Virus genome (UHGV): UHGV-0242872
Origin: a virus
Length of the DNA stretch: 45,782 nt
Direction: 5' to 3' (one strand)
Below are positions 8,539 through 45,311 of this stretch, one piece after another (positions within the stretch are counted from its first letter, which is position 1; each line of letters starts with the position of its first letter). The notes beneath the pieces are model-generated. The model searched no databases. It saw only the letters and a program-made list of their open reading frames with translations, and had not been told where the DNA came from. The position numbers and the translations under genes were made by a program.

Positions 8539-8730
8539 CTACTTCTCTTTCACGTTCGAGTTGCAAGCCCAGATTAAAATGAATACCCACGGCAACAGAA
8601 TCCACCCGAGAAATAAGTTAGCCATGAATATCGCCAGCTTTGCTTTATGGTTACGCATATGTGCCACCAAAAACGGGATAAAATAAACGGCTACAAAAAT
8701 AATTAAGAAGAACATAGTGATACCGGTCAT
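8539..8730 (-). CDS. small two-TM membrane protein, Imm-like (possible superinfection exclusion)
   Basis: ATG 8730 with AGGAG SD; two hydrophobic helices; C-terminal NLFLGWILLPWVFILIWA. Confidence 0.5.
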   Translation of the reverse strand: MTGITMFFLIIFVAVYFIPFLVAHMRNHKAKLAIFMANLFLGWILLPWVFILIWACNSNVKEK

Positions 8731-8772
8731 AACATAACTCCTGATTTGAGATAACATCGTTGGTGTAAGTGA

Positions 8773-8801
8773 ATAGTACGCTATTATATTGGGGTGTGCA
8801 A
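8773..8801 (-). promoter_or_regulatory. sigma70-like promoter TTGCAC-N17-TACTAT for moron cassette
   Basis: -35 at 8801-8796, -10 at 8778-8773 on minus strand; AATAG-N4-CTATT palindrome 8772-8785 overlaps the -10. Confidence 0.55.
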
Positions 8802-8908
8802 GTAGTGTGCTAGAATAATTTTGCGCCTAGTGTCGCACACGAAAAGCGGGTGGTTCCCGTCTGGCGCATTTCCTTTAACCAGTAACCTCTTAACCAAAGG
8901 ATTAAAGA

Positions 8909-9325
8909 ATGAAACTTTCTGATTTTTATTACGAAGCGGAAGCCGAAAAGGGCGCACGTATGCCGATACCGCTAAAAGACGGTACTGATTCCGGGGAATG
9001 GCTTAATGTTGTTTCTCCTGAGGCGGACGTTGCCGTTAAGGCTATGCGCGCGTTCACCCTTGCATACCGGGCAGTATTAGGGAAATTAAAACCGCTTCGT
9101 GATAAGTGCGAAGAGATGAAAGATTTCTCTGAATACAACCTGAAGATGGAAGACGCGGCGACGGACCTTAACCGTCAGTTAGCGATTGAATTGGTTAACG
9201 GGTGGAGCCTTGACGACGAATTCAATAAAGAGAATCTGAACACACTCCTGACGCAATATAAACGACTCGCGGAACTTGTTGTTGTGTTTCATAACGAACA
9301 ACTGCACCAGCTACAGGAAAAGTAG
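8909..9325 (+). CDS. putative tail assembly chaperone (G-like)
   Basis: 138 aa ORF immediately upstream of tape measure gene; ends EK* on the slippery sequence GGAAAAG-TAG. Confidence 0.45.
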   Translation: MKLSDFYYEAEAEKGARMPIPLKDGTDSGEWLNVVSPEADVAVKAMRAFTLAYRAVLGKLKPLRDKCEEMKDFSEYNLKMEDAATDLNRQLAIELVNGWSLDDEFNKENLNTLLTQYKRLAELVVVFHNEQLHQLQEK

Positions 9326-20614: not shown

Positions 20615-21536
20615 TTACCGCCCCCATGAATGCCTTTATAAATTCAGCAGCTACTTGCGGGACGATGGCATTGCCGTAACCGCGCAATCGTCCCACTCTG
20701 GCGGGTATCCCATCAGCCAGCGGGAATGTGCCGGGTTCAACTGGCCTGAATTTTCCATCCCTGCATCCGAGCCAGTCAGCACCTGACCAGAAGCCGTAAT
20801 GCGAATAGGTTGTGTTATTTTCAGCCCCTGCTCCGTCGAGTAGTCCAGCCTGTCGAAAGTCCGGTCCTTTCCGTCCTTGCGAATCACTGTCTCTCCGCTC
20901 CCTCTGTAATCGTTCGCGGTCGGCGTCGCCCATGCCGTCATCGCGGCGGCCCACCCCAGTTTGTTCGGTTTCGTCCTGCCGTCTGTGCTGCGCATGTTCA
21001 CGTCGTTTGTTATCAGTGATACCGCTGGCGTGGGCCAATCTATGCGCGCCGAAGAAAAGTCGGTCGCGTTTGTGCGGTGCGCCGACGCTACAAGCTGGGA
21101 GTACGGCAAACCCGACGGCGTAGTTTTCTCCTTCCAGGTGAGTTTGTAAATCGCACATCCACGATTTTGCAATTGCTGGCGCAACCTGCTCCCCAAAGAG
21201 GACTGGAGGGTGGCACTCGCTGATGAGGTCGAGGAACACAGGTGCGAGGTGTCTCGGGTCGAACTGTCCGAGTTGCTTTCCCGCTGCGCTAAACGGTTGG
21301 CAAGGCGGGCTTCCCGTCCAGAGAGGCGCATCTTCCGGAACTCCCGCAAGTCTGAGCGCGAGGGGCCAGCCGCCGATACCAGCGAAAAAATGACACTGGG
21401 TGAATCCGTCGAGGTCTTCTGGCTTAACTTCAGTAATGCTTCTTTCATCTACAACTCCAAAAGGTATGTGACCCTGTTTTATTAATTCACGCAGCCACGC
21501 GGCTGCGCCTTTATCCCATTCGTTGTAATAGTTCAT
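20607..21536 (-). CDS. DNA (cytosine-5)-methyltransferase, orphan
   Basis: motif I FAGIGG, motif IV SPPCQPFS, ENV-like GEQV, RDR, motif X GNAIV; no restriction partner seen. Confidence 0.8.
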   Translation of the reverse strand: MNYYNEWDKGAAAWLRELIKQGHIPFGVVDERSITEVKPEDLDGFTQCHFFAGIGGWPLALRLAGVPEDAPLWTGSPPCQPFSAAGKQLGQFDPRHLAPVFLDLISECHPPVLFGEQVAPAIAKSWMCDLQTHLEGENYAVGFAVLPACSVGAPHKRDRLFFGAHRLAHASGITDNKRREHAQHRRQDETEQTGVGRRDDGMGDADRERLQRERRDSDSQGRKGPDFRQAGLLDGAGAENNTTYSHYGFWSGADWLGCRDGKFRPVEPGTFPLADGIPARVGRLRGYGNAIVPQVAAEFIKAFMGAVNE

Positions 21537-21724
21537 TTTGCCACCAGTACCAGTTCCTTCCTCCCGAACGCCGTAACGTTTCCAGCTACGTCTTCGATAA
21601 CCAGTTTACCGTTAGACTCGACGAACACCGTATCAACGGCAACAGGACGACGTGTCTTAACGTTGAAAATCATGTCACCCGGTACAATGTCACGTGCAGG
21701 TTTGCGGTCGTATTCGTGTTTCAT
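21533..21724 (-). CDS. hypothetical protein (63 aa)
   Basis: first gene after internal promoter; ATGA coupling to methyltransferase. Confidence 0.45.
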   Translation of the reverse strand: MKHEYDRKPARDIVPGDMIFNVKTRRPVAVDTVFVESNGKLVIEDVAGNVTAFGRKELVLVAK

Positions 21725-21754: not shown

Positions 21755-22042
21755 CTAACTATAATAGTTCGCTATTAGGTCGTCAACCTGTTTAAACGAA
21801 CCGACGACAAAAACATTTGCACCTCTTTTACGCATCCGCTCGTGCTCGCGTAACTGGTGGGGGTCGGGCTTCGTGTTTTCGTCTTTCTTAACCTCAACGA
21901 ACCAGACGATGCCGCCGGGGAGAATTACCAGCAGGTCAGGAGCGCCGGAACGTCCTTCGTAGGAAAGTTTACGAACGAGGCCACCAAGGGCCTCGAATCG
22001 CTCTTTTGCGTATTTCTGTATTTTGCCCTCAGGCGTACTCAT
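21755..22042 (-). CDS. VRR-NUC domain nuclease
   Basis: PD-(D/E)XK-type motif PDLLVILPGG...FVEVKK. Confidence 0.7.
   Translation of the reverse strand: MSTPEGKIQKYAKERFEALGGLVRKLSYEGRSGAPDLLVILPGGIVWFVEVKKDENTKPDPHQLREHERMRKRGANVFVVGSFKQVDDLIANYYS
21758..21786 (-). promoter_or_regulatory. sigma70-like promoter TTGACG-N17-TATAGT
   Basis: minus strand; AATAG-N4-CTATT palindrome 21763-21776 in spacer. Confidence 0.55.
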
Positions 22043-25714: not shown

Positions 25715-25743
25715 ACTATAATAGCTAACTATTCATGTGTCAA
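25715..25743 (-). promoter_or_regulatory. sigma70-like promoter TTGACA-N17-TATAGT
   Basis: minus strand; palindrome 25720-25733 in spacer. Confidence 0.6.
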
Positions 25744-28312: not shown

Positions 28313-28341
28313 ACTATAATAGCGAACTATTCACATGTCAA
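28313..28341 (-). promoter_or_regulatory. consensus sigma70 promoter TTGACA-N17-TATAGT (leftward early)
   Basis: -35 at 28341-28336, -10 at 28318-28313; palindrome AATAG-cgaa-CTATT 28318-28331 in spacer. Confidence 0.7.
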
Positions 28342-28361
28342 TGGGCTTTTCTAAAATAATT

Positions 28362-28375
28362 AATATGGTACTATT
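28362..28375 (+). promoter_or_regulatory. imperfect operator-like palindrome overlapping a TACTAT -10 upstream of the Cro-like gene
   Basis: AATAT-ggta-CTATT with TACTAT at 28369-28374; candidate -35 is weak. Confidence 0.35.
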
Positions 28376-28405: not shown

Positions 28406-28621
28406 ATGCAACCATCTGAACTAGGCATTCGTGTAGAACAACGCCGTAAAGAACTCGGCATCTCCCAGCGCCGTCTGGCTGTCCTGGCCGGTGTCTCCCA
28501 GGGCGCGATTAACCAGCTTGCACTTGGGGTAACTCAGGATGTCCGCCCGGCGACGCTGTTTAAACTGGCGGAAGTGCTTGAAGTAGACGCCAAGTGGTTG
28601 GCGTTAGGTGAAGGGGCTTAA
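28406..28621 (+). CDS. Cro/XRE-family HTH transcriptional regulator
   Basis: 71 aa with HTH ISQRRLAVLAGVSQGAINQL; AAGGAG SD; sits in a divergent promoter region. Confidence 0.8.
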   Translation: MQPSELGIRVEQRRKELGISQRRLAVLAGVSQGAINQLALGVTQDVRPATLFKLAEVLEVDAKWLALGEGA

Positions 28622-28639
28622 GCCCCTTTTCTTTTTATT
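28611..28639 (+). terminator. intrinsic terminator after Cro-like gene
   Basis: AAGGGGC-TTAA-GCCCCTT hairpin followed by TTCTTTTTATT. Confidence 0.75.
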
Positions 28640-31274: not shown

Positions 31275-31487
31275 TTACTTAACGCCCGCAATCCACGCAC
31301 GCTCCGAAGCGTAGAAACGACACTTACTTAAAGCCTCGATTGGCATCTTAATAATGCGTGTCGGTTCCAACAAATGATTAGGCTTACATATTTCCGCATA
31401 GAATCCGCTGTCAGTAATTTCCGACGCAAACTTAAACCAGTATTTAACTTTACAGTTTTCAAAGTAACAACCCATACGCCCAATCAT
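31275..31487 (-). CDS. hypothetical protein (70 aa)
   Basis: ATGA coupling to upstream HTH gene. Confidence 0.45.
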   Translation of the reverse strand: MIGRMGCYFENCKVKYWFKFASEITDSGFYAEICKPNHLLEPTRIIKMPIEALSKCRFYASERAWIAGVK

Positions 31488-31666
31488 TTCACGTTCTCCT
31501 TAATCCATGCTTCAACTTTATTACGGTCAAATGTTCCTGGTAAACGGCGACCCATAACCTTAATACAGCAATCAGGGAATTTACCGCTGCGCAACCAGTT
31601 ATTAATTGTTTGACGTGTCACCCCGATACGTTCAGCCACTTCATTCTGTGTCATGTAATGCTGCAT
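31484..31666 (-). CDS. AlpA/excisionase-like HTH DNA-binding protein
   Basis: ATG 31666 with AGGAG SD (track ORF extends to 31738); HTH TQNEVAERIGVTRQTINNWL. Confidence 0.6.
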   Translation of the reverse strand: MQHYMTQNEVAERIGVTRQTINNWLRSGKFPDCCIKVMGRRLPGTFDRNKVEAWIKENVK

Positions 31667-31697
31667 TTTTATATCTCCTGTTTGTTTGGTGAAAACG

Positions 31698-31726
31698 AGT
31701 ATAGGATAGCGTGAATGTAAAAGCAA
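31698..31726 (-). promoter_or_regulatory. sigma70-like promoter TTGCTT-N17-TATACT for primase-helicase operon
   Basis: minus-strand hexamers with 17-nt spacing upstream of the HTH gene. Confidence 0.5.
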
Positions 31727-31773
31727 CCAAAACACCACACAAAGTTACTAATATACAAAAGATGCTAATGGTA

Positions 31774-31802
31774 TTGACTTTTACTAAGAAATGTGCTAAG
31801 CT
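31774..31802 (+). promoter_or_regulatory. strong extended -10 promoter TTGACT-N17-TGcTAAGCT driving structured RNA copy 1
   Basis: -35 at 31774-31779, TG at 31794-31795, -10 at 31797-31802. Confidence 0.6.
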
Positions 31803-31808
31803 CCACCT

Positions 31809-31915
31809 GAGCTTGTGAAGTATGAACAAGCGACCGCGGTGCGGCAGGAAACGGAGCGGTGCGTCAGCACTGAGTGTAGTGTCGCTGCCTGCATTCGGAA
31901 GGGCCATAATCTATT
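31809..31915 (+). ncRNA. structured RNA element, copy 1 (function unknown; candidate antitermination or regulatory RNA)
   Basis: about 107 nt starting at predicted TSS; paralogous to 45138-45245; hairpin GCUUGU-N9-ACAAGC; compensatory base-pair changes between copies; no ORF. Confidence 0.45.
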
Positions 31916-32082: not shown

Positions 32083-32111
32083 TTGCACACCCCAACATAA
32101 TAGGATACTAT
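32083..32111 (+). promoter_or_regulatory. sigma70-like promoter TTGCAC-N17-TACTAT (rightward early)
   Basis: palindrome AATAG-gata-CTATT 32099-32112 overlaps the -10. Confidence 0.6.
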
Positions 32112-32719: not shown

Positions 32720-32877
32720 GAGAAGCATTCGAACGGTGGGCCATCGTCGAGGGTCTGCCGGTTAATAAGGGTTCGAAGAAAGAGTACCTGAACGTTAAGA
32801 CGCGTCTCGCGTGGCGGGCGTGGAAAGCTGGTGCGAATGTAATGGCTGGCGCATTTGAGAAGAGAGGCGATTTATGA
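32716..32877 (+). CDS. hypothetical early protein (53 aa)
   Basis: ATGA overlaps on both ends; below track cutoff. Confidence 0.35.
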   Translation: MREAFERWAIVEGLPVNKGSKKEYLNVKTRLAWRAWKAGANVMAGAFEKRGDL

Positions 32878-33059
32878 GCAAGTGGATTAAGTGTAGTGAG
32901 CGGATGCCGGAGCCTTATGAATACGTTCTTGTAACTGATTGTTTTGTTGGCTGTGAGGTTATGCGTGTTAATTCAGATGGCTACTGGGGGCCTGCAAAGA
33001 GTTTATATCACGGTGATATAACGCACTGGATGCCGTTACCTGAGCCGCCGGAGGTGTGA
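32874..33059 (+). CDS. hypothetical protein (DUF551-like)
   Basis: 61 aa; WIKCSERMPEPYEYVLV pattern. Confidence 0.45.
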   Translation: MSKWIKCSERMPEPYEYVLVTDCFVGCEVMRVNSDGYWGPAKSLYHGDITHWMPLPEPPEV

Positions 33060-33206: not shown

Positions 33207-33235
33207 TTGCACGCTAAGATAGAATAGGCTACTAT
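33207..33235 (+). promoter_or_regulatory. sigma70-like promoter TTGCAC-N17-TACTAT
   Basis: palindrome AATAG-gcta-CTATT 33223-33236 overlaps the -10. Confidence 0.6.
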
Positions 33236-36469: not shown

Positions 36470-36491
36470 ATCTATTTTCGGTAATGACTAG

Positions 36492-36520
36492 TTGACTATT
36501 ACCCTCGACCCTATTATATT
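36492..36520 (+). promoter_or_regulatory. sigma70 promoter TTGACT-N17-TATATT
   Basis: consensus-like hexamers upstream of gene at 36554. Confidence 0.6.
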
Positions 36521-37711: not shown

Positions 37712-37889
37712 AGCGCCTGAACCAGTAGTTATCGATGGCGTCCTGTGGAAGCCATACTCGGTTTACCACATCGACGCCGACGGGAAGAAGTTTAGCTTCT
37801 ACATTTTTGCAATTAGCCGTGAGCACGCCGCTTGTGTGGTTGACGATATTCGAGAAACGGCGTGGCTTGGTGATGAGATAGCGGGGTGA
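37704..37889 (+). CDS. hypothetical protein (61 aa)
   Basis: overlaps upstream stop. Confidence 0.45.
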   Translation: MTKAPEPVVIDGVLWKPYSVYHIDADGKKFSFYIFAISREHAACVVDDIRETAWLGDEIAG

Positions 37890-37988: not shown

Positions 37989-38159
37989 ATGTTCAGTGAC
38001 ATTAACGCGGCAATCGAAGAAGCAATCTGGCGTCGCTACAACGGCGAGCAACAACGGCATTTCTGCCTGGTGCAACGCGGTAACATGATTGCCGTAGTGC
38101 AGGACCGCGATAACAAATATCCGAATGCGATGTGGACAACGAGGAATTTTTTAGGATGA
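37989..38159 (+). CDS. hypothetical protein (56 aa)
   Basis: ATGA coupling to downstream gene; below track cutoff. Confidence 0.3.
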   Translation: MFSDINAAIEEAIWRRYNGEQQRHFCLVQRGNMIAVVQDRDNKYPNAMWTTRNFLG

Positions 38160-38392
38160 TTACCAGCATTCCGAACCTGATTAAAGAATTCGGCACGATG
38201 GCCGAGACATGCCGGCAAACCGGCATCAACGAAATGACGATTGCGAAGTACAGCAAAGACGTTGATTGCGAGCGCCACGTAATTTATAACAATCGTCTGA
38301 TGACACATGTTAAGACAAGCCCGGTGTTATTCACGCGCCGAGGTATCACTAAAACTGAGCAACGCATTGCTAAAGGGGAGAGTGGGGAATGA
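38156..38392 (+). CDS. hypothetical protein (78 aa)
   Basis: ATG 38156 inside track ORF 38132-38392. Confidence 0.4.
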   Translation: MITSIPNLIKEFGTMAETCRQTGINEMTIAKYSKDVDCERHVIYNNRLMTHVKTSPVLFTRRGITKTEQRIAKGESGE

Positions 38393-42075: not shown

Positions 42076-42249
42076 TTATGCGTCTCTACTCGCCAGATAA
42101 TCACAGCGGGCTATGGCTAAGTCTAAGCTACTGTATGCGCTATCTGTTTTAGCGTGGGTGAACCCCGAAATCATTACGTGGTACACGCCTTTATCGTTTA
42201 GAACCCAGTATTTACCATTTTCGTGCATTATGTCTTTTTCTTTGAACAT
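42076..42249 (-). CDS. hypothetical protein (57 aa)
   Basis: ATG 42249 with AGGAG SD; driven by minus-strand TTGCAG-N17-TACTAT promoter. Confidence 0.4.
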   Translation of the reverse strand: MFKEKDIMHENGKYWVLNDKGVYHVMISGFTHAKTDSAYSSLDLAIARCDYLASRDA

Positions 42250-42296
42250 TTTTCATCTCCTGTTTAAGTTAACTGAATAGTACCCTATTATATTGG
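42246..42296 (+). repeat. 51-nt direct repeat, copy 1 (promoter, operator and SD of a minus-strand small gene)
   Basis: 50/51 identical to 44977-45027. Confidence 0.8.
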
Positions 42297-42305
42297 TGTC
42301 TGCAA
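42277..42305 (-). promoter_or_regulatory. sigma70-like promoter TTGCAG-N17-TACTAT
   Basis: minus strand; palindrome AATAG-tacc-CTATT 42276-42289 overlaps the -10; part of 51-nt repeat. Confidence 0.5.
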
Positions 42306-42349
42306 ATATTATTTTTATGCGTTACACTGGCGATACTACAGGAGGGCAC

Positions 42350-44287
42350 ATGAGCTTACTTACATCCCTAATTAGCCACCAGATATGGCTGCAACGCACC
42401 GCATCCGGTGAAGTGAAAGACCTCACACCATTCATTCAGGAGATGCGGGATGAAATCAAACGGCAAGTGCTGTTATTCGGTGACGACGGTCGTAGCACCG
42501 CGCGACTGAATAAACTGTTACGCGACCTTGAAGAAGCACTGACCGGGCTTACAGGTGACTGGCAAACAAAGCTGACAGAAGACCTTAAGGAACTGGCGGC
42601 ATATGAGGCTGAGTGGAACGTAAAGACACTGACCGCCAACGTAGCTGCGGAATTTGTTACACCTACCGCTGAACAGGTGTGGGCTGCTGCCGAGTTTCAA
42701 CCGTTATCGTTGAGCGACAAGCCTGTTGACTTCACTAAGCTGATGTCAGGTTGGGGTGAAACCGAAGTCGCGCGCCTGGTAACGGGTGTTAAGATGGGCT
42801 TTGTTCAGGGTAAGACAACACGGCAGATTGTTACAGAAGTAGTCGGTAAAGGCGGGCTGGCTGACGTATCAGAGAAATACGCCGCTACCGTAATCCGCAC
42901 TGCGCTGTCTCACGTGTCCAACGAAGCCCGCAATGAAACATACCGCCAGAACGACGATATCATCGAGAAGTACGAATGGGTGTCAACGCTGGACAGCCGT
43001 ACCAGTACAACGTGTTTCACGGCTGAAACAGAATTAGCGCCCATCGCGGGGATGGACGCGGTAATGCGCGGACTCTATTCAGGAAAAATCTTTACCATCG
43101 AACTTTCCAACGGCGAGAAGTTCAGTGGCACCCCGAAACACCCTGTACTCACGCAATACGGATGGACTCCGCTTGATGAACTCGATCCAACTAAGCATGT
43201 CTTGTATACCACTGTTGACAAAGTGACTGTGCTCGAAACAGTGAAGAACATAAACATGCCAGCCAGAGCGGATTATATTTTTAATACGCTCGCTGATTTC
43301 CCCATCAGGAAAATGGTAAGCACGAGTCCCGCGGCAACAGATTTCTATGGCGATGGAGTGGGACTCAATGGCAAAATCGACATTGTACGGACCGATTGCA
43401 AACTGCGGAACTACGTCCACGCCAGCGGAATTAAACAATTCAAAAGCGAGGGTTTCAGTCTTATTCATAGCGCCGCTTTGCTGTCGGACGATAGCTCTGG
43501 CGATTTTCTCCTCCGGGGTGAATGTCCTGTGAGTGTGCCCGCGCTTAGCGAGGCCAAGTGTTTTGACCATAGAATAGAAAACTGTTTTGCTTACTTGGGT
43601 CCTTCTTATGCACTCAATAGGCGGAACGCCGGACTCGAACAATTCTATAGCCCTTTTTTGATTCAAAATGGTGTCGTTAGAAACCCAACCACGGGGTCGA
43701 TCATGCATGAGTCCGAGCTTCTTGAGAAATGTTGTTACCGTGGTGGTAGTGACGCCGTAATTCTTGGCTATGATGCTGGCGGGAGTGCCATCTCGGTACA
43801 AAGAACAAATATCATCCGCATAAGCGTCGAGTTTAGAACGTGCCATGTTTATACCCTCTCTAGTAGTCAAGGATATTATACAGCAGGTAGTGCGATAGTC
43901 AAGAATTGCAGGGCCAGAGACGGGATGACGTGGGAAATTGGTAAGGGGCCGATGCCCCCAGCCCATCCGAACTGCCGGTCGTGCACGGCTCCGGTAATCA
44001 GTTCCGAGTTCGACTTCCTCGATAAAGGCGCAAAACGCGCGGCTAAAGGCGCGGAAGGTGGCACTCAGGTAAGCGCAGACACCACTTACTACGAGTTCCT
44101 TAAACAACAACCGGCGTGGTTTCAGGACCAGGCGCTCGGCCCGGTGCGAGGTAAGATTTTCCGTAACAGCGGTATATCGCCGGAAGAGTTTCGCGTAATA
44201 TCTGTAGATGGTTTCGGGAATCCGCTCACGCTTAAGCAGATGGCGGAACTCGATAAACGTGTTGCTGATTATCTGAAAGGGGAATAA
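42350..44287 (+). CDS. head morphogenesis protein (Mu F / SPP1 gp7-like) interrupted by an in-frame intein
   Basis: ATG 42350 with AGGAGGG SD; exteins join to give DSRTSTT|CRARDGMTWEIGKGPMPPAHPNCRSC; precursor 645 aa, predicted mature 347 aa. Confidence 0.75.
   Translation: MSLLTSLISHQIWLQRTASGEVKDLTPFIQEMRDEIKRQVLLFGDDGRSTARLNKLLRDLEEALTGLTGDWQTKLTEDLKELAAYEAEWNVKTLTANVAAEFVTPTAEQVWAAAEFQPLSLSDKPVDFTKLMSGWGETEVARLVTGVKMGFVQGKTTRQIVTEVVGKGGLADVSEKYAATVIRTALSHVSNEARNETYRQNDDIIEKYEWVSTLDSRTSTTCFTAETELAPIAGMDAVMRGLYSGKIFTIELSNGEKFSGTPKHPVLTQYGWTPLDELDPTKHVLYTTVDKVTVLETVKNINMPARADYIFNTLADFPIRKMVSTSPAATDFYGDGVGLNGKIDIVRTDCKLRNYVHASGIKQFKSEGFSLIHSAALLSDDSSGDFLLRGECPVSVPALSEAKCFDHRIENCFAYLGPSYALNRRNAGLEQFYSPFLIQNGVVRNPTTGSIMHESELLEKCCYRGGSDAVILGYDAGGSAISVQRTNIIRISVEFRTCHVYTLSSSQGYYTAGSAIVKNCRARDGMTWEIGKGPMPPAHPNCRSCTAPVISSEFDFLDKGAKRAAKGAEGGTQVSADTTYYEFLKQQPAWFQDQALGPVRGKIFRNSGISPEEFRVISVDGFGNPLTLKQMAELDKRVADYLKGE
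43079..43846 (-). CDS. HTH plus DUF559/Vsr-like PD-(D/E)XK endonuclease encoded antisense inside the intein
   Basis: ATG 43846 with GAGAGGG SD; two HTH-like segments; endonuclease core YNVDFAIESHSIAIEICCRG...GWHVYVLH; track ORF extends to 44110. Confidence 0.6.
   Translation of the reverse strand: MARSKLDAYADDICSLYRDGTPASIIAKNYGVTTTTVTTFLKKLGLMHDRPRGWVSNDTILNQKRAIELFESGVPPIECIRRTQVSKTVFYSMVKTLGLAKRGHTHRTFTPEEKIARAIVRQQSGAMNKTETLAFELFNSAGVDVVPQFAIGPYNVDFAIESHSIAIEICCRGTRAYHFPDGEISERIKNIIRSGWHVYVLHCFEHSHFVNSGIQDMLSWIEFIKRSPSVLREYRVFRGATELLAVGKFDGKDFS
43875..43902 (-). promoter_or_regulatory. consensus sigma70 promoter TTGACT-N16-TATAAT inside the intein 3' end
   Basis: -35 at 43902-43897, -10 at 43880-43875 on minus strand, about 30 nt upstream of the antisense ATG. 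Confidence 0.6.
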
Positions 44288-44752: not shown

Positions 44753-44778
44753 AGGCCCCGTAAGGGGCCTTAGTTTTC
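44753..44778 (+). terminator. intrinsic terminator
   Basis: AGGCCCC-GTAA-GGGGCCT hairpin followed by TAGTTTTC. Confidence 0.7.
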
Positions 44779-44980
44779 AACGGAATCTTGTGTTTAAATC
44801 CTGCTCATGGACAACCCTCAGAACAGTGTCATAATCCCCGTATCTTCCAGGTTCAAATATATCTAATGCCTTGTAAGCAGACATTGCGTCAGGGAAAACC
44901 TGCAGAACCTTTTTAACCCGGCACAAGTCACCGTCGAACTCTTCATCGAACTCTTGAACTACTTCGCAAATTGCATACAT
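44777..44980 (-). CDS. hypothetical acidic protein (67 aa)
   Basis: ATG 44980 with AGGAGG SD; driven by minus-strand TTGCAC-N17-TACTAT promoter. Confidence 0.45.
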   Translation of the reverse strand: MYAICEVVQEFDEEFDGDLCRVKKVLQVFPDAMSAYKALDIFEPGRYGDYDTVLRVVHEQDLNTRFR

Positions 44981-45027
44981 TTTTCACCTCCTGTTTAAGT
45001 TAACTGAATAGTACCCTATTATATTGG
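44977..45027 (+). repeat. 51-nt direct repeat, copy 2
   Basis: 50/51 identical to 42246-42296; the pair brackets the head-morphogenesis/intein/Ig-like segment. Confidence 0.8.
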
Positions 45028-45036
45028 GGTGTGCAA
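45008..45036 (-). promoter_or_regulatory. sigma70-like promoter TTGCAC-N17-TACTAT
   Basis: minus strand; palindrome AATAG-tacc-CTATT 45007-45020 overlaps the -10; part of 51-nt repeat. Confidence 0.55.
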
Positions 45037-45089: not shown

Positions 45090-45103
45090 ACTATTCGAAT
45101 AGT
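45090..45103. promoter_or_regulatory. perfect 14-bp palindrome ACTATTCGAATAGT abutting the -35 of the RNA copy 2 promoter
   Basis: same half-sites as the AATAG-N4-CTATT operator but everted. Confidence 0.35.
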
Positions 45104-45131
45104 TGACTTTTCACTAAAAATATGATAAGCT
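45103..45131 (+). promoter_or_regulatory. strong extended -10 promoter TTGACT-N17-TGaTAAGCT driving structured RNA copy 2
   Basis: -35 at 45103-45108, TG at 45123-45124, -10 at 45126-45131. Confidence 0.6.
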
Positions 45132-45137
45132 CCACCT

Positions 45138-45245
45138 GAGCTTGTGAAGTATGAACAAGCGACCGCGGCGCGGGCAGGTAACGGAGCGGGACGTAAGTCC
45201 TGAGTGTAGTTACGCTGACGCGTTCGGAAGGGCCATACTCTATTG
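45138..45245 (+). ncRNA. structured RNA element, copy 2
   Basis: first 43 nt identical to copy 1 from the -10 onward; inner stem GGAC-GUAA-GUCC replaces GUGC-GUCA-GCAC of copy 1. Confidence 0.45.
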
Positions 45246-45311
45246 CTTGTGTAAAAAGTAACTGGTTTACTGAGATTACGCCGTTTCTATGTTTAAATGA
45301 TAAGGACTAGC

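Follow-up and report, generated by a model that had tools for sequence, protein, structure and literature searches.

Phage 434 Cro binds as a dimer to 14-bp dyad operators through the outer 4-5 bp of each half, and the central bases are left uncontacted. Dispersed repressor sites are also known from temperate phages, for example the P1 C1 operators, the 'stoperators' of mycobacteriophage L5 gp71 and the conserved inverted repeats of Streptomyces phiC31. Here we describe a short palindrome, AATAG-N4-CTATT, that recurs on the promoters of virus genome UHGV-0242872 (45,782 bp; this whole stretch is referred to as the window), together with a 71-aa Cro-like protein encoded at 28406-28621 that is the best candidate to bind it. 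We consider it slightly more probable than a coin toss that the dyad is an operator bound by this Cro-like protein acting as a repressor. From the enrichment, the positions, the conservation pattern and the protein fold reported below, we infer that a protein binds the repeat, which protein this is, and in what direction and when it acts on transcription.

The resemblance to 434 concerns both the sites and the protein. Like the 434 OR and OL sites, the repeat is a 14-bp dyad with conserved outer bases and a variable centre which overlaps promoter cores, and the candidate regulator gene adjoins divergent promoters with two sites. Both proteins comprise 71 aa in an all-helical, five-helix helix-turn-helix (HTH) fold, 434 Cro is the best match in the Protein Data Bank (PDB) by sequence and by fold, and the recognition-helix glutamine is conserved. 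However, the two proteins are only ~40% identical, the arms are AATAG (longer) instead of ACAA, and four instead of six central bases separate them. The phage described here is also lytic and has no partner CI repressor, integrase or lysogeny module, and its sites are spread over about ten promoters, with binding predicted, whereas 434 has two tripartite operators. As with P1 C1, L5 gp71 and phiC31, one phage protein is proposed for many scattered short sites beside or inside promoters; those systems, in contrast, maintain lysogeny, and the P1 and L5 sites are asymmetric, while the repeat here is a dyad and always lies on a promoter core. The restriction-modification controller (C) proteins C.AhdI and C.BclI, as well as SinR, are likewise small dimeric XRE-type HTH proteins with dyad 'C-boxes' over their own promoters, but they differ in biological setting, in having a single-operon regulon and in an identity of only 23-31%.

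The window is a complete, circularly permuted Kagunavirus genome (Guernseyvirinae; K1G-like siphophages of E. coli). Its early region is ~95% identical to that of Escherichia phage vB_EcoM_SHAK7858 (hereafter SHAK7858) and 90-95% identical to those of many further Kagunaviruses, and several hundred Salmonella Jerseyviruses also match the window at 80-90%. The family is called strictly lytic (PMC7203180, PMC9825357). Each large open reading frame (ORF) has a syntenic annotated counterpart in the closest relatives. According to this synteny with two annotated relatives, the plus strand carries two small-gene blocks followed by the lysis, terminase and structural genes, and the minus strand carries the replication genes (helicase, methyltransferase, DNA polymerase, single-stranded DNA (ssDNA)-binding protein, exonuclease and helicase-primase). 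The structural block is interrupted by three small minus-strand inserts.

Eight exact copies of AATAG-N4-CTATT were found in the window, compared with a mean of 0.02 in 100 dinucleotide shuffles and at most one in any shuffle. Such an enrichment test against a shuffled genome had been asked for when the palindrome was originally predicted, and the coordinates claimed then are all correct, including the imperfect copy at 28362-28375 and the everted ACTATTCGAATAGT at 45090-45103. With up to one mismatch allowed, 12 matches were obtained against 1.39 expected. These include the imperfect copy just mentioned (AATATGGTACTATT) and matches at 36487-36500 and 45098-45111; another at 43573, within a gene, is probably due to chance. 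The single pentamers showed no enrichment (31 AATAG and 46 CTATT, ~45 expected for each), and the enrichment was confined to the paired form. The 4-bp centre differs in seven of the eight exact copies. Furthermore, AATAG-N4-CTATT is the commonest palindrome of the form 5-N(0-8)-5, both in the window and in each of the Kagunavirus and Jerseyvirus genomes analysed.

A hexamer-by-hexamer check placed each exact copy on a sigma70-type promoter core with a 17-bp spacer; the -35 and -10 hexamers of nine promoters, each located ahead of a gene with a Shine-Dalgarno sequence, were verified, and the transcription starts used below are predicted from them. Two classes could be distinguished. Class A promoters, TTGCA(C/G)-N17-TACTAT, carry the copies at 8772, 42276 and 45007 on the minus strand and those at 32099 and 33223 on the plus strand. 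In this class the right arm CTATT lies inside the -10 hexamer and the left arm in the spacer, so that the dyad centre falls at about -12.5 when the -10 hexamer is taken as -12 to -7. Class B promoters, TTGAC(A/G)-N17-TATAGT, carry the copies at 21763, 25720 and 28318, all on the minus strand, and hold the entire dyad within the spacer with its centre at about -18.5. All three class B promoters were found by a consensus scan and scored 10-11 of 12. The class A hexamers, with agreement at only 7 of 12 consensus positions, escaped the scan; they do retain the key -10 positions A-11 and T-7 and the TTG of the -35. The extended element TGAATAG-N4-CTATTAT stands in opposite orientations in the two classes and is shifted by ~6 bp in register. 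A third register is seen for the two weaker, one-mismatch copies at 36487 and 45098, where a TTGACT -35 hexamer runs across the centre and right arm and the dyad centre lies at about -33.5.

The relation between the repeat and the promoter hexamers was evaluated in ~50 relatives, comprising 3 full genomes, 38 Kagunavirus regions and 12 Jerseyvirus regions (genomes or 20-kb regions). Orthologous sites were located by 120-bp flank homology only, because selection by the motif itself would bias the arms toward conservation. Across ~30-48 loci per site, the mean minor-allele fraction over distinct sequences was 0.028 in the arms versus 0.338 in the centre at P21763, 0.011 versus 0.203 at P25720, 0.003 versus 0.074 at P32099 and 0.007 versus 0.069 at P33223, while the adjoining 10-bp flanks gave 0.06-0.19. 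At P28318, a 1-nt spacer indel shifts the register; all Kagunavirus 14-mers there read AATAG-N4-CTATT, with six different centres. The arms are thus as constrained as the hexamers, and the four central bases are the freest part of the promoter. Conserved arms around a variable centre, as had been originally predicted, are the signature expected of a dimer-bound operator.

One alternative needs no dedicated binder: a promoter cassette was spread by duplication and kept for its promoter strength, or acts as a 'phage-specific promoter', the label given to it in two genome papers. The class A promoters do share more than the dyad, namely TTGCACACCCCAA, a TCAC start region and a AACGAGAGGAG leader, which shows that these cassettes share common descent. 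Their right arm also overlaps the -10, and the sequence is detected by the program PHIRE as a repeated 20-mer. We nevertheless regard this explanation as very unlikely. Neither arm of the class B copies is part of a hexamer; both lie in the spacer and are conserved like the hexamers, and the bases between them vary by 20-34%. Sigma70 does not read the spacer, and dyad symmetry plays no part in its recognition of promoters. Because the conserved class B arms stand outside the hexamers, the frequency of the motif is not explained by the -10 consensus alone, the explanation that had been named in advance as fatal to the operator proposal. The opposite orientations and shifted registers of the two classes likewise indicate that the repeat is independent of the polymerase hexamers. 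Two other possibilities were rejected. Bidirectional -10 symmetry fails as the main cause since the opposite-strand hexamers are missing either a -35 or the essential A-11, and a role at the RNA level fails since the repeat lies upstream of the predicted transcription starts and its 5-bp stems are too weak.

Table 1. Positions in the window of the palindrome copies, their promoter hexamers and the two candidate binder genes
Feature	Position	Strand	Hexamers or other signals	Genes downstream
Candidate operator copy AATAGTACGCTATT, P8772	8772..8785	minus	-35 TTGCAC 8796-8801; -10 TACTAT 8773-8778	Minus-strand insert: superinfection-immunity-like gene (8539-8757), exonuclease, kinases
Candidate operator copy, P21763, wholly in spacer	21763..21776	minus	-35 TTGACG 21781-21786; -10 TATAGT 21758-21763	21533-21724, methyltransferase, helicase
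Candidate operator copy, P25720, in spacer	25720..25733	minus	-35 TTGACA 25738-25743; -10 TATAGT 25715-25720	ssDNA-binding protein and DNA polymerase
Candidate operator O1, spacer of leftward P28318	28318..28331	minus	-35 TTGACA 28336-28341; -10 TATAGT 28313-28318	Divergent from cro
Imperfect candidate operator O2 AATATGGTACTATT, over cro promoter -10	28362..28375	plus	poor -35 CTTTTC; -10 TACTAT 28369-28374	cro-like gene
71-aa 434-Cro-like HTH_3 protein gene, best candidate binder	28406..28621	plus	intrinsic terminator 28610-28629	
60-aa HTH_17 ('AlpA-like'/excisionase-like) protein gene, alternative candidate binder	31484..31666	minus	HTH_17 E=1.6e-8	
Candidate operator copy, P32099	32099..32112	plus	-35 TTGCAC 32083-32088; -10 TACTAT 32106-32111	First rightward small-gene block
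Candidate operator copy, P33223	33223..33236	plus	-35 TTGCAC 33207-33212; -10 TACTAT 33230-33235	Second rightward block, through holin and endolysin genes
Probable weak operator ACTAGTTGACTATT, P36487 (9/10 arm bases)	36487..36500	plus	-35 TTGACT 36492-36497; -10 TATATT 36515-36520	Directly after a strong terminator; heads genes leading into terminase and structural genes
Candidate operator copy, P42276	42276..42289	minus	-35 TTGCAG 42300-42305; -10 TACTAT 42277-42282	Small gene 42076-42249, between portal and head-morphogenesis genes
Candidate operator copy, P45007	45007..45020	minus	-35 TTGCAC 45031-45036; -10 TACTAT 45008-45013	Small gene 44777-44980
Everted ACTATTCGAATAGT (45090-45103) overlapping one-mismatch AATAGTTGACTTTT (45098); uncertain operator	45090..45111	plus	on -35 TTGACT 45103-45108	Structured-RNA-like element

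The recurrent sequence is already on record in two published genome reports. The PHIRE lists for the Kagunaviruses VB_EcoS-Golestan (Table S4) and fBC-Eco01 (Table S2, 'Phage RNAP promoter', i.e. RNA polymerase promoter) hold these 20-mers, which match the window at the same genomic places, e.g. TAATAGCGAACTATTCACAT and TAATATGGTACTATTCACAT, with the consensus tgAATAGTa-ccTATTat-T. In both papers the 20-mer is taken to be a promoter, in one of them that of a phage RNA polymerase (label in PMC9825357), and neither mentions the dyad symmetry, the sigma70 hexamers and registers or the Cro-like gene. No RNA polymerase gene is found among the 83 and 85 annotated genes of the closest relatives, and the label is thus left without an enzyme. 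The operator reading is new as far as we could find, whereas the kind of system, a Cro-type repressor with dyad operators, is familiar.

The best candidate binder is encoded directly beside two of the copies. The protein of 28406-28621 matches Pfam HTH_3 (PF01381) with 47.2 bits against a cut-off of 23 (E=2.3e-12), and among solved structures phage 434 Cro is nearest to it (E=2e-6 along the entire length). A single-sequence AlphaFold 2 model (predicted local distance difference test, pLDDT, 81.7) gave five helices at residues 5-17, 21-28, 32-39, 48-57 and 62-66. When this model was searched with Foldseek, the top match was 434 Cro (2cro; template-modelling score, TM, 0.74/0.81; 42% identity), and the next were restriction-modification controller proteins, SinR and HipB. 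The gene is an isolated plus-strand gene set among minus-strand operons and between divergent promoters, with O1 and O2 within 90 bp upstream; O2 lies 31 bp upstream of the start codon, and every Kagunavirus locus has its G-to-T change. This arrangement is the classic one of an autoregulated gene, and two sites directly upstream of the Cro-like gene would most simply be read as autoregulation. Hence, the earlier proposal of the Cro/XRE-type gene as binder gains from a 434-Cro-type HTH protein with two repeat copies directly upstream, with the binding itself being a prediction. The helical phasing of O1 and O2 was also considered. They are 43-45 bp apart in Kagunavirus and 55 bp apart in Jerseyvirus, a suggestive difference of 11 bp that proved unusable given the within-genus spread and the imperfect phase.

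The distribution of the motif was then compared with that of the Cro-like gene across the Guernseyvirinae. Kagunaviruses carry 7-8 exact and 4-5 one-mismatch copies. The Jerseyvirus Ent2 carries four exact and four one-mismatch copies at the same promoters, with the dyad lengthened to TAATAG-N4-CTATTA, and Jerseyviruses have AATAGTTGACTAGT at the position matching the 36487 site. Serratia phage Tsm2 has two exact and two one-mismatch copies (0.03 and 0.13 expected), three of them at corresponding promoters. Enterobacter phage phiEap-2 shows a degenerate form, with one exact and nine one-mismatch copies (0.1 and 0.9 expected), and its core AATA-N6-TATT occurs in eight copies against 0.4 expected. 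The Cro-like gene is present in every relative examined, including Tsm2, phiEap-2 and Cornellvirus VSiP, and hence in every motif-bearing clade, which is not true of the AlpA-like gene. In SHAK7858 it is intact but unannotated (32743-32955). No relative without it was seen; tblastn found the gene in 486 records, compared with 480 that showed DNA homology. In all clades, the recognition helix still begins with a glutamine, the counterpart of Q28 in 434 Cro.

Several observations weigh against the Cro-like protein as the binder. VSiP keeps the Cro-like gene, and no recognisable copy of the motif, exact or with one mismatch, was found in its 16-kb early region. The Tsm2 site upstream of the cro-like gene has decayed, and the Jerseyvirus cro promoter retains a half-site only. 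Kagunavirus and Jerseyvirus share only ~50% identity in the Cro-like protein, and the exposed residues of its recognition helix differ (SQGAINQL versus SQSLITHL) despite identical core arms. Over the four clades with the same core arms, helix 3 reads SQGAINQL, SQSLITHL, SQGMLNHL and SQGRVSHI, and in VSiP, where the motif is absent, TQSAISHL; the base flanking the arms does differ between Kagunavirus and Jerseyvirus. By comparison, the two genera share 82% identity in the 60-aa HTH_17 protein, and its HTH is hardly altered. An independent link between the protein family and the sequence was sought through bacterial homologues, without success. A word-based protein search returned Kagunavirus-like proteins only. 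In a scan of bacterial genomes, generic XRE proteins of ~40% identity had other helices and other palindromes, with a 5-N4-5 dyad upstream in 2 of 7 cases, which is about chance level. Finally, the searchable literature yielded no transcription, expression, binding or operator study for Kagunavirus, Jerseyvirus, Jersey-like phages or the subfamily as a whole.

The second gene that had been proposed as the binder, the AlpA-like gene at 31484-31666, would place the operator under the 60-aa HTH_17 protein, which would be made early and then act on all other promoters. This protein has a DNA-binding HTH, and its 82% identity between genera suits an unchanged core motif better than the ~50% of the Cro-like protein. 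In addition, the clades with the sharpest motif, Kagunavirus and Jerseyvirus, are those having the HTH_17 gene, and the promoter-like site of its own AlpA-like/helicase-primase operon (TTGCTT-N17-TATACT, minus strand, 31698-31726; -10 at 31698-31703, -35 at 31721-31726) holds no palindrome copy. However, the gene is absent from Tsm2 and phiEap-2, both at the syntenic place and in a tblastn search of all phage records, while the promoters of these two phages still show the enriched motif. Moreover, the usual targets of small MerR-like or excisionase-type winged helices are direct or asymmetric sites, to which they bind as monomers, and not dyads of 14 bp. As the motif persists in two relatives that have no AlpA-like gene, the Cro-like protein is favoured over the AlpA-like one, and we consider the HTH_17 protein a quite unlikely binder, a candidate that has been weakened. 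Its name is of little help. The characterised AlpA, from P. aeruginosa, is a Q-like antiterminator of far greater size, whose N-terminal segment forms a ring and whose HTH is C-terminal; it acts as a monomer on a 6-bp asymmetric element in the spacer (PMC9371919). The window protein, in contrast, consists of an HTH_17 domain only, and the element here is a 14-bp dyad. 'AlpA-like' therefore carries no mechanistic weight in the present case.

The operator might also serve some other protein, for example a small, as yet uncharacterised protein of the phage or a regulator common to the hosts Escherichia, Salmonella and Serratia. Most of the ~40 small genes have no recognisable domain, the core motif stays constant across hosts while the Cro-like recognition helix drifts, and VSiP has the Cro-like gene but not the motif. 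On the other hand, a Pfam scan of 26 small ORFs for DNA-binding domains found them in only three: HTH_3 (28406-28621), HTH_17 (31484-31666) and a sub-threshold NinH-like match (38132-38392). To our knowledge, none of the host regulators OxyR, MntR, NrdR, FNR, ArgR, Fis and others fits AATAG-N4-CTATT in both spacing and sequence. The two copies upstream of the Cro-like gene, most simply explained by autoregulation, also speak against a different binder, and we regard this possibility as unlikely.

If the 71-aa Cro-like protein is the repressor, the following course would be expected. Upon entry, host RNA polymerase would start from all strong dyad promoters, several of which have A/T-rich upstream regions, and the Cro-like protein would be made from its own weak promoter, itself bearing a weak operator. 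The 5-bp arms may each be contacted by a Cro-like dimer in one of two successive major grooves, with no contacts to the four central bp. Accumulating dimers would fill the dyads and thereby obstruct the -10, the spacer or the -35; because every copy overlaps a sigma70 promoter core, a bound dimer would exclude host RNA polymerase. Transcription of the replication operons would fall in concert with that of the small-gene and lysis blocks and of the minus-strand inserts, and the last copies to be filled would be the imperfect ones, located at the cro promoter and at the promoter ahead of the late genes. Such a role resembles that of Cro in moderating early transcription during lambdoid lytic growth.

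A shut-off of all early promoters at once, as originally predicted, is too strong a statement in two respects. The promoters are not only early ones, since they also drive the lysis genes, cro itself and the three minus-strand inserts in the late structural block, and not all promoters are covered, since the AlpA-like/helicase-primase promoter-like site has no copy. A further-reaching version of the Cro-like repressor proposal, which we put forward tentatively and think rather improbable, is that in a strictly lytic phage family lacking its own RNA polymerase and sigma factor, one such protein times nearly the whole transcription programme through graded operators (perfect, 9/10 and half-site) in three registers on host-type promoters. 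Replication, host takeover and the accessory inserts, with the late operon last, would then be shut down in a set sequence.

The sign of the effect might also differ between the two classes, the dyad binder activating or re-timing the weaker TTGCAC-N17-TACTAT promoters and repressing only the consensus TTGACA promoters. The poor match of the class A hexamers (7/12) and their escape from the consensus scan would fit such a scheme, as would the different kinds of genes driven by the two classes. However, the class A site at about -12.5 overlaps the -10, where sigma region 2 must bind, whereas known activators act at about -41.5 or further upstream, or on over-long spacers of 19-20 bp (MerR type). 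The spacers here have the optimal 17 bp, with A-11, T-7 and the -35 TTG all present. We therefore hold activation to be highly improbable, and repression by the Cro-like protein is kept as the preferred reading.

When phages are isolated for therapy and biocontrol against E. coli and Salmonella, Guernseyvirinae (Kagunavirus and Jerseyvirus) are among the most frequent finds. If the Cro-like repressor proposal is true, about ten promoters would be controlled by one small protein through one 14-bp site, the published label 'phage RNA polymerase promoter' would be corrected, and a compact orthogonal set of repressor, operators and promoters would become available for engineering, together with predictions of which genes are co-switched. 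If the graded-operator version is also true, such a global brake could permit a transient repressed carrier state in phages that are deemed obligately lytic and are used therapeutically. The conceptual gain is modest because the kind of system is familiar.

Some further observations concern the copies in relatives. At SHAK7858 37801-37814, and at the same spot in several Kagunavirus loci, exact AATAG-nTTA-CTATT copies lie beside GTAACAGG repeats. They sit just before the terminator preceding P33223, without promoter hexamers around them, and the window has no copy at this place. SHAK7858 also has no copy at the 42276 position. The taxonomy line of its record (OR594183.1) says Autographiviridae/Kayfunavirus, although it is a siphophage-like Kagunavirus relative. 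Scaffold22 of Taishania pollutisoli (NZ_JACVEL010000022.1, 18,987 bp, a Bacteroidota assembly) codes for a Cro-like protein with the same sequence as that of Salmonella phage vB_SenS-Ent2 and also has the same candidate operator copies, which is probably due to Jerseyvirus contamination of the assembly. In phiEap-2, Tsm2 and VSiP the helicase-primase gene is inverted and follows the Cro-like gene on the same strand, and the AlpA-like gene is missing.

In the head-gene block, the minus-strand segments 42076-42305 and 44777-45036 are near-identical promoter/operator/leader cassettes placed before different small genes, in a moron-like manner. The ORF after the 42276 cassette (42293-44287, 664 aa) is far longer than the 358-aa head-morphogenesis gene of SHAK7858.

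Two paralogous elements of ~100-120 nt, at 31803-31915 and 45132-45250 on the plus strand, look like structured phage RNA. Their promoter-like sites are TTGACT-N17-TAAGCT at 31774-31802 and 45103-45131, and the AATAGTTGACTTTT copy, uncertain as an operator, lies on the -35 of the second of these. RNAalifold on 10 distinct copies gave 31 pairs, 7 of them with compensatory changes, and 96.5% of cells were paired compared with 33-42% when the partners were slid. The single-sequence folding energy was not unusual (z = -0.45), and no Rfam family matched the element, even at E<=10. By blastn the element occurs in 181 phage records (Escherichia, Salmonella, Raoultella and Shigella), mostly unannotated. 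An 88-aa ORF on the minus strand (31641-31907), antisense to the first copy and without a Pfam match, is doubtful as a gene; on the stretch matching it, SHAK7858 annotates two tiny plus-strand 'hypothetical proteins'. Separately, the Rfam int-alpA RNA (RF02996) matched 8820-8884 on the plus strand just above threshold (36.6 versus 35.8 bits), where the consensus scan gave no plus-strand promoter. This match, which has the palindrome at 8772 on one side and the tail-assembly-chaperone gene at 8909 on the other, may be a leader of the tail genes.

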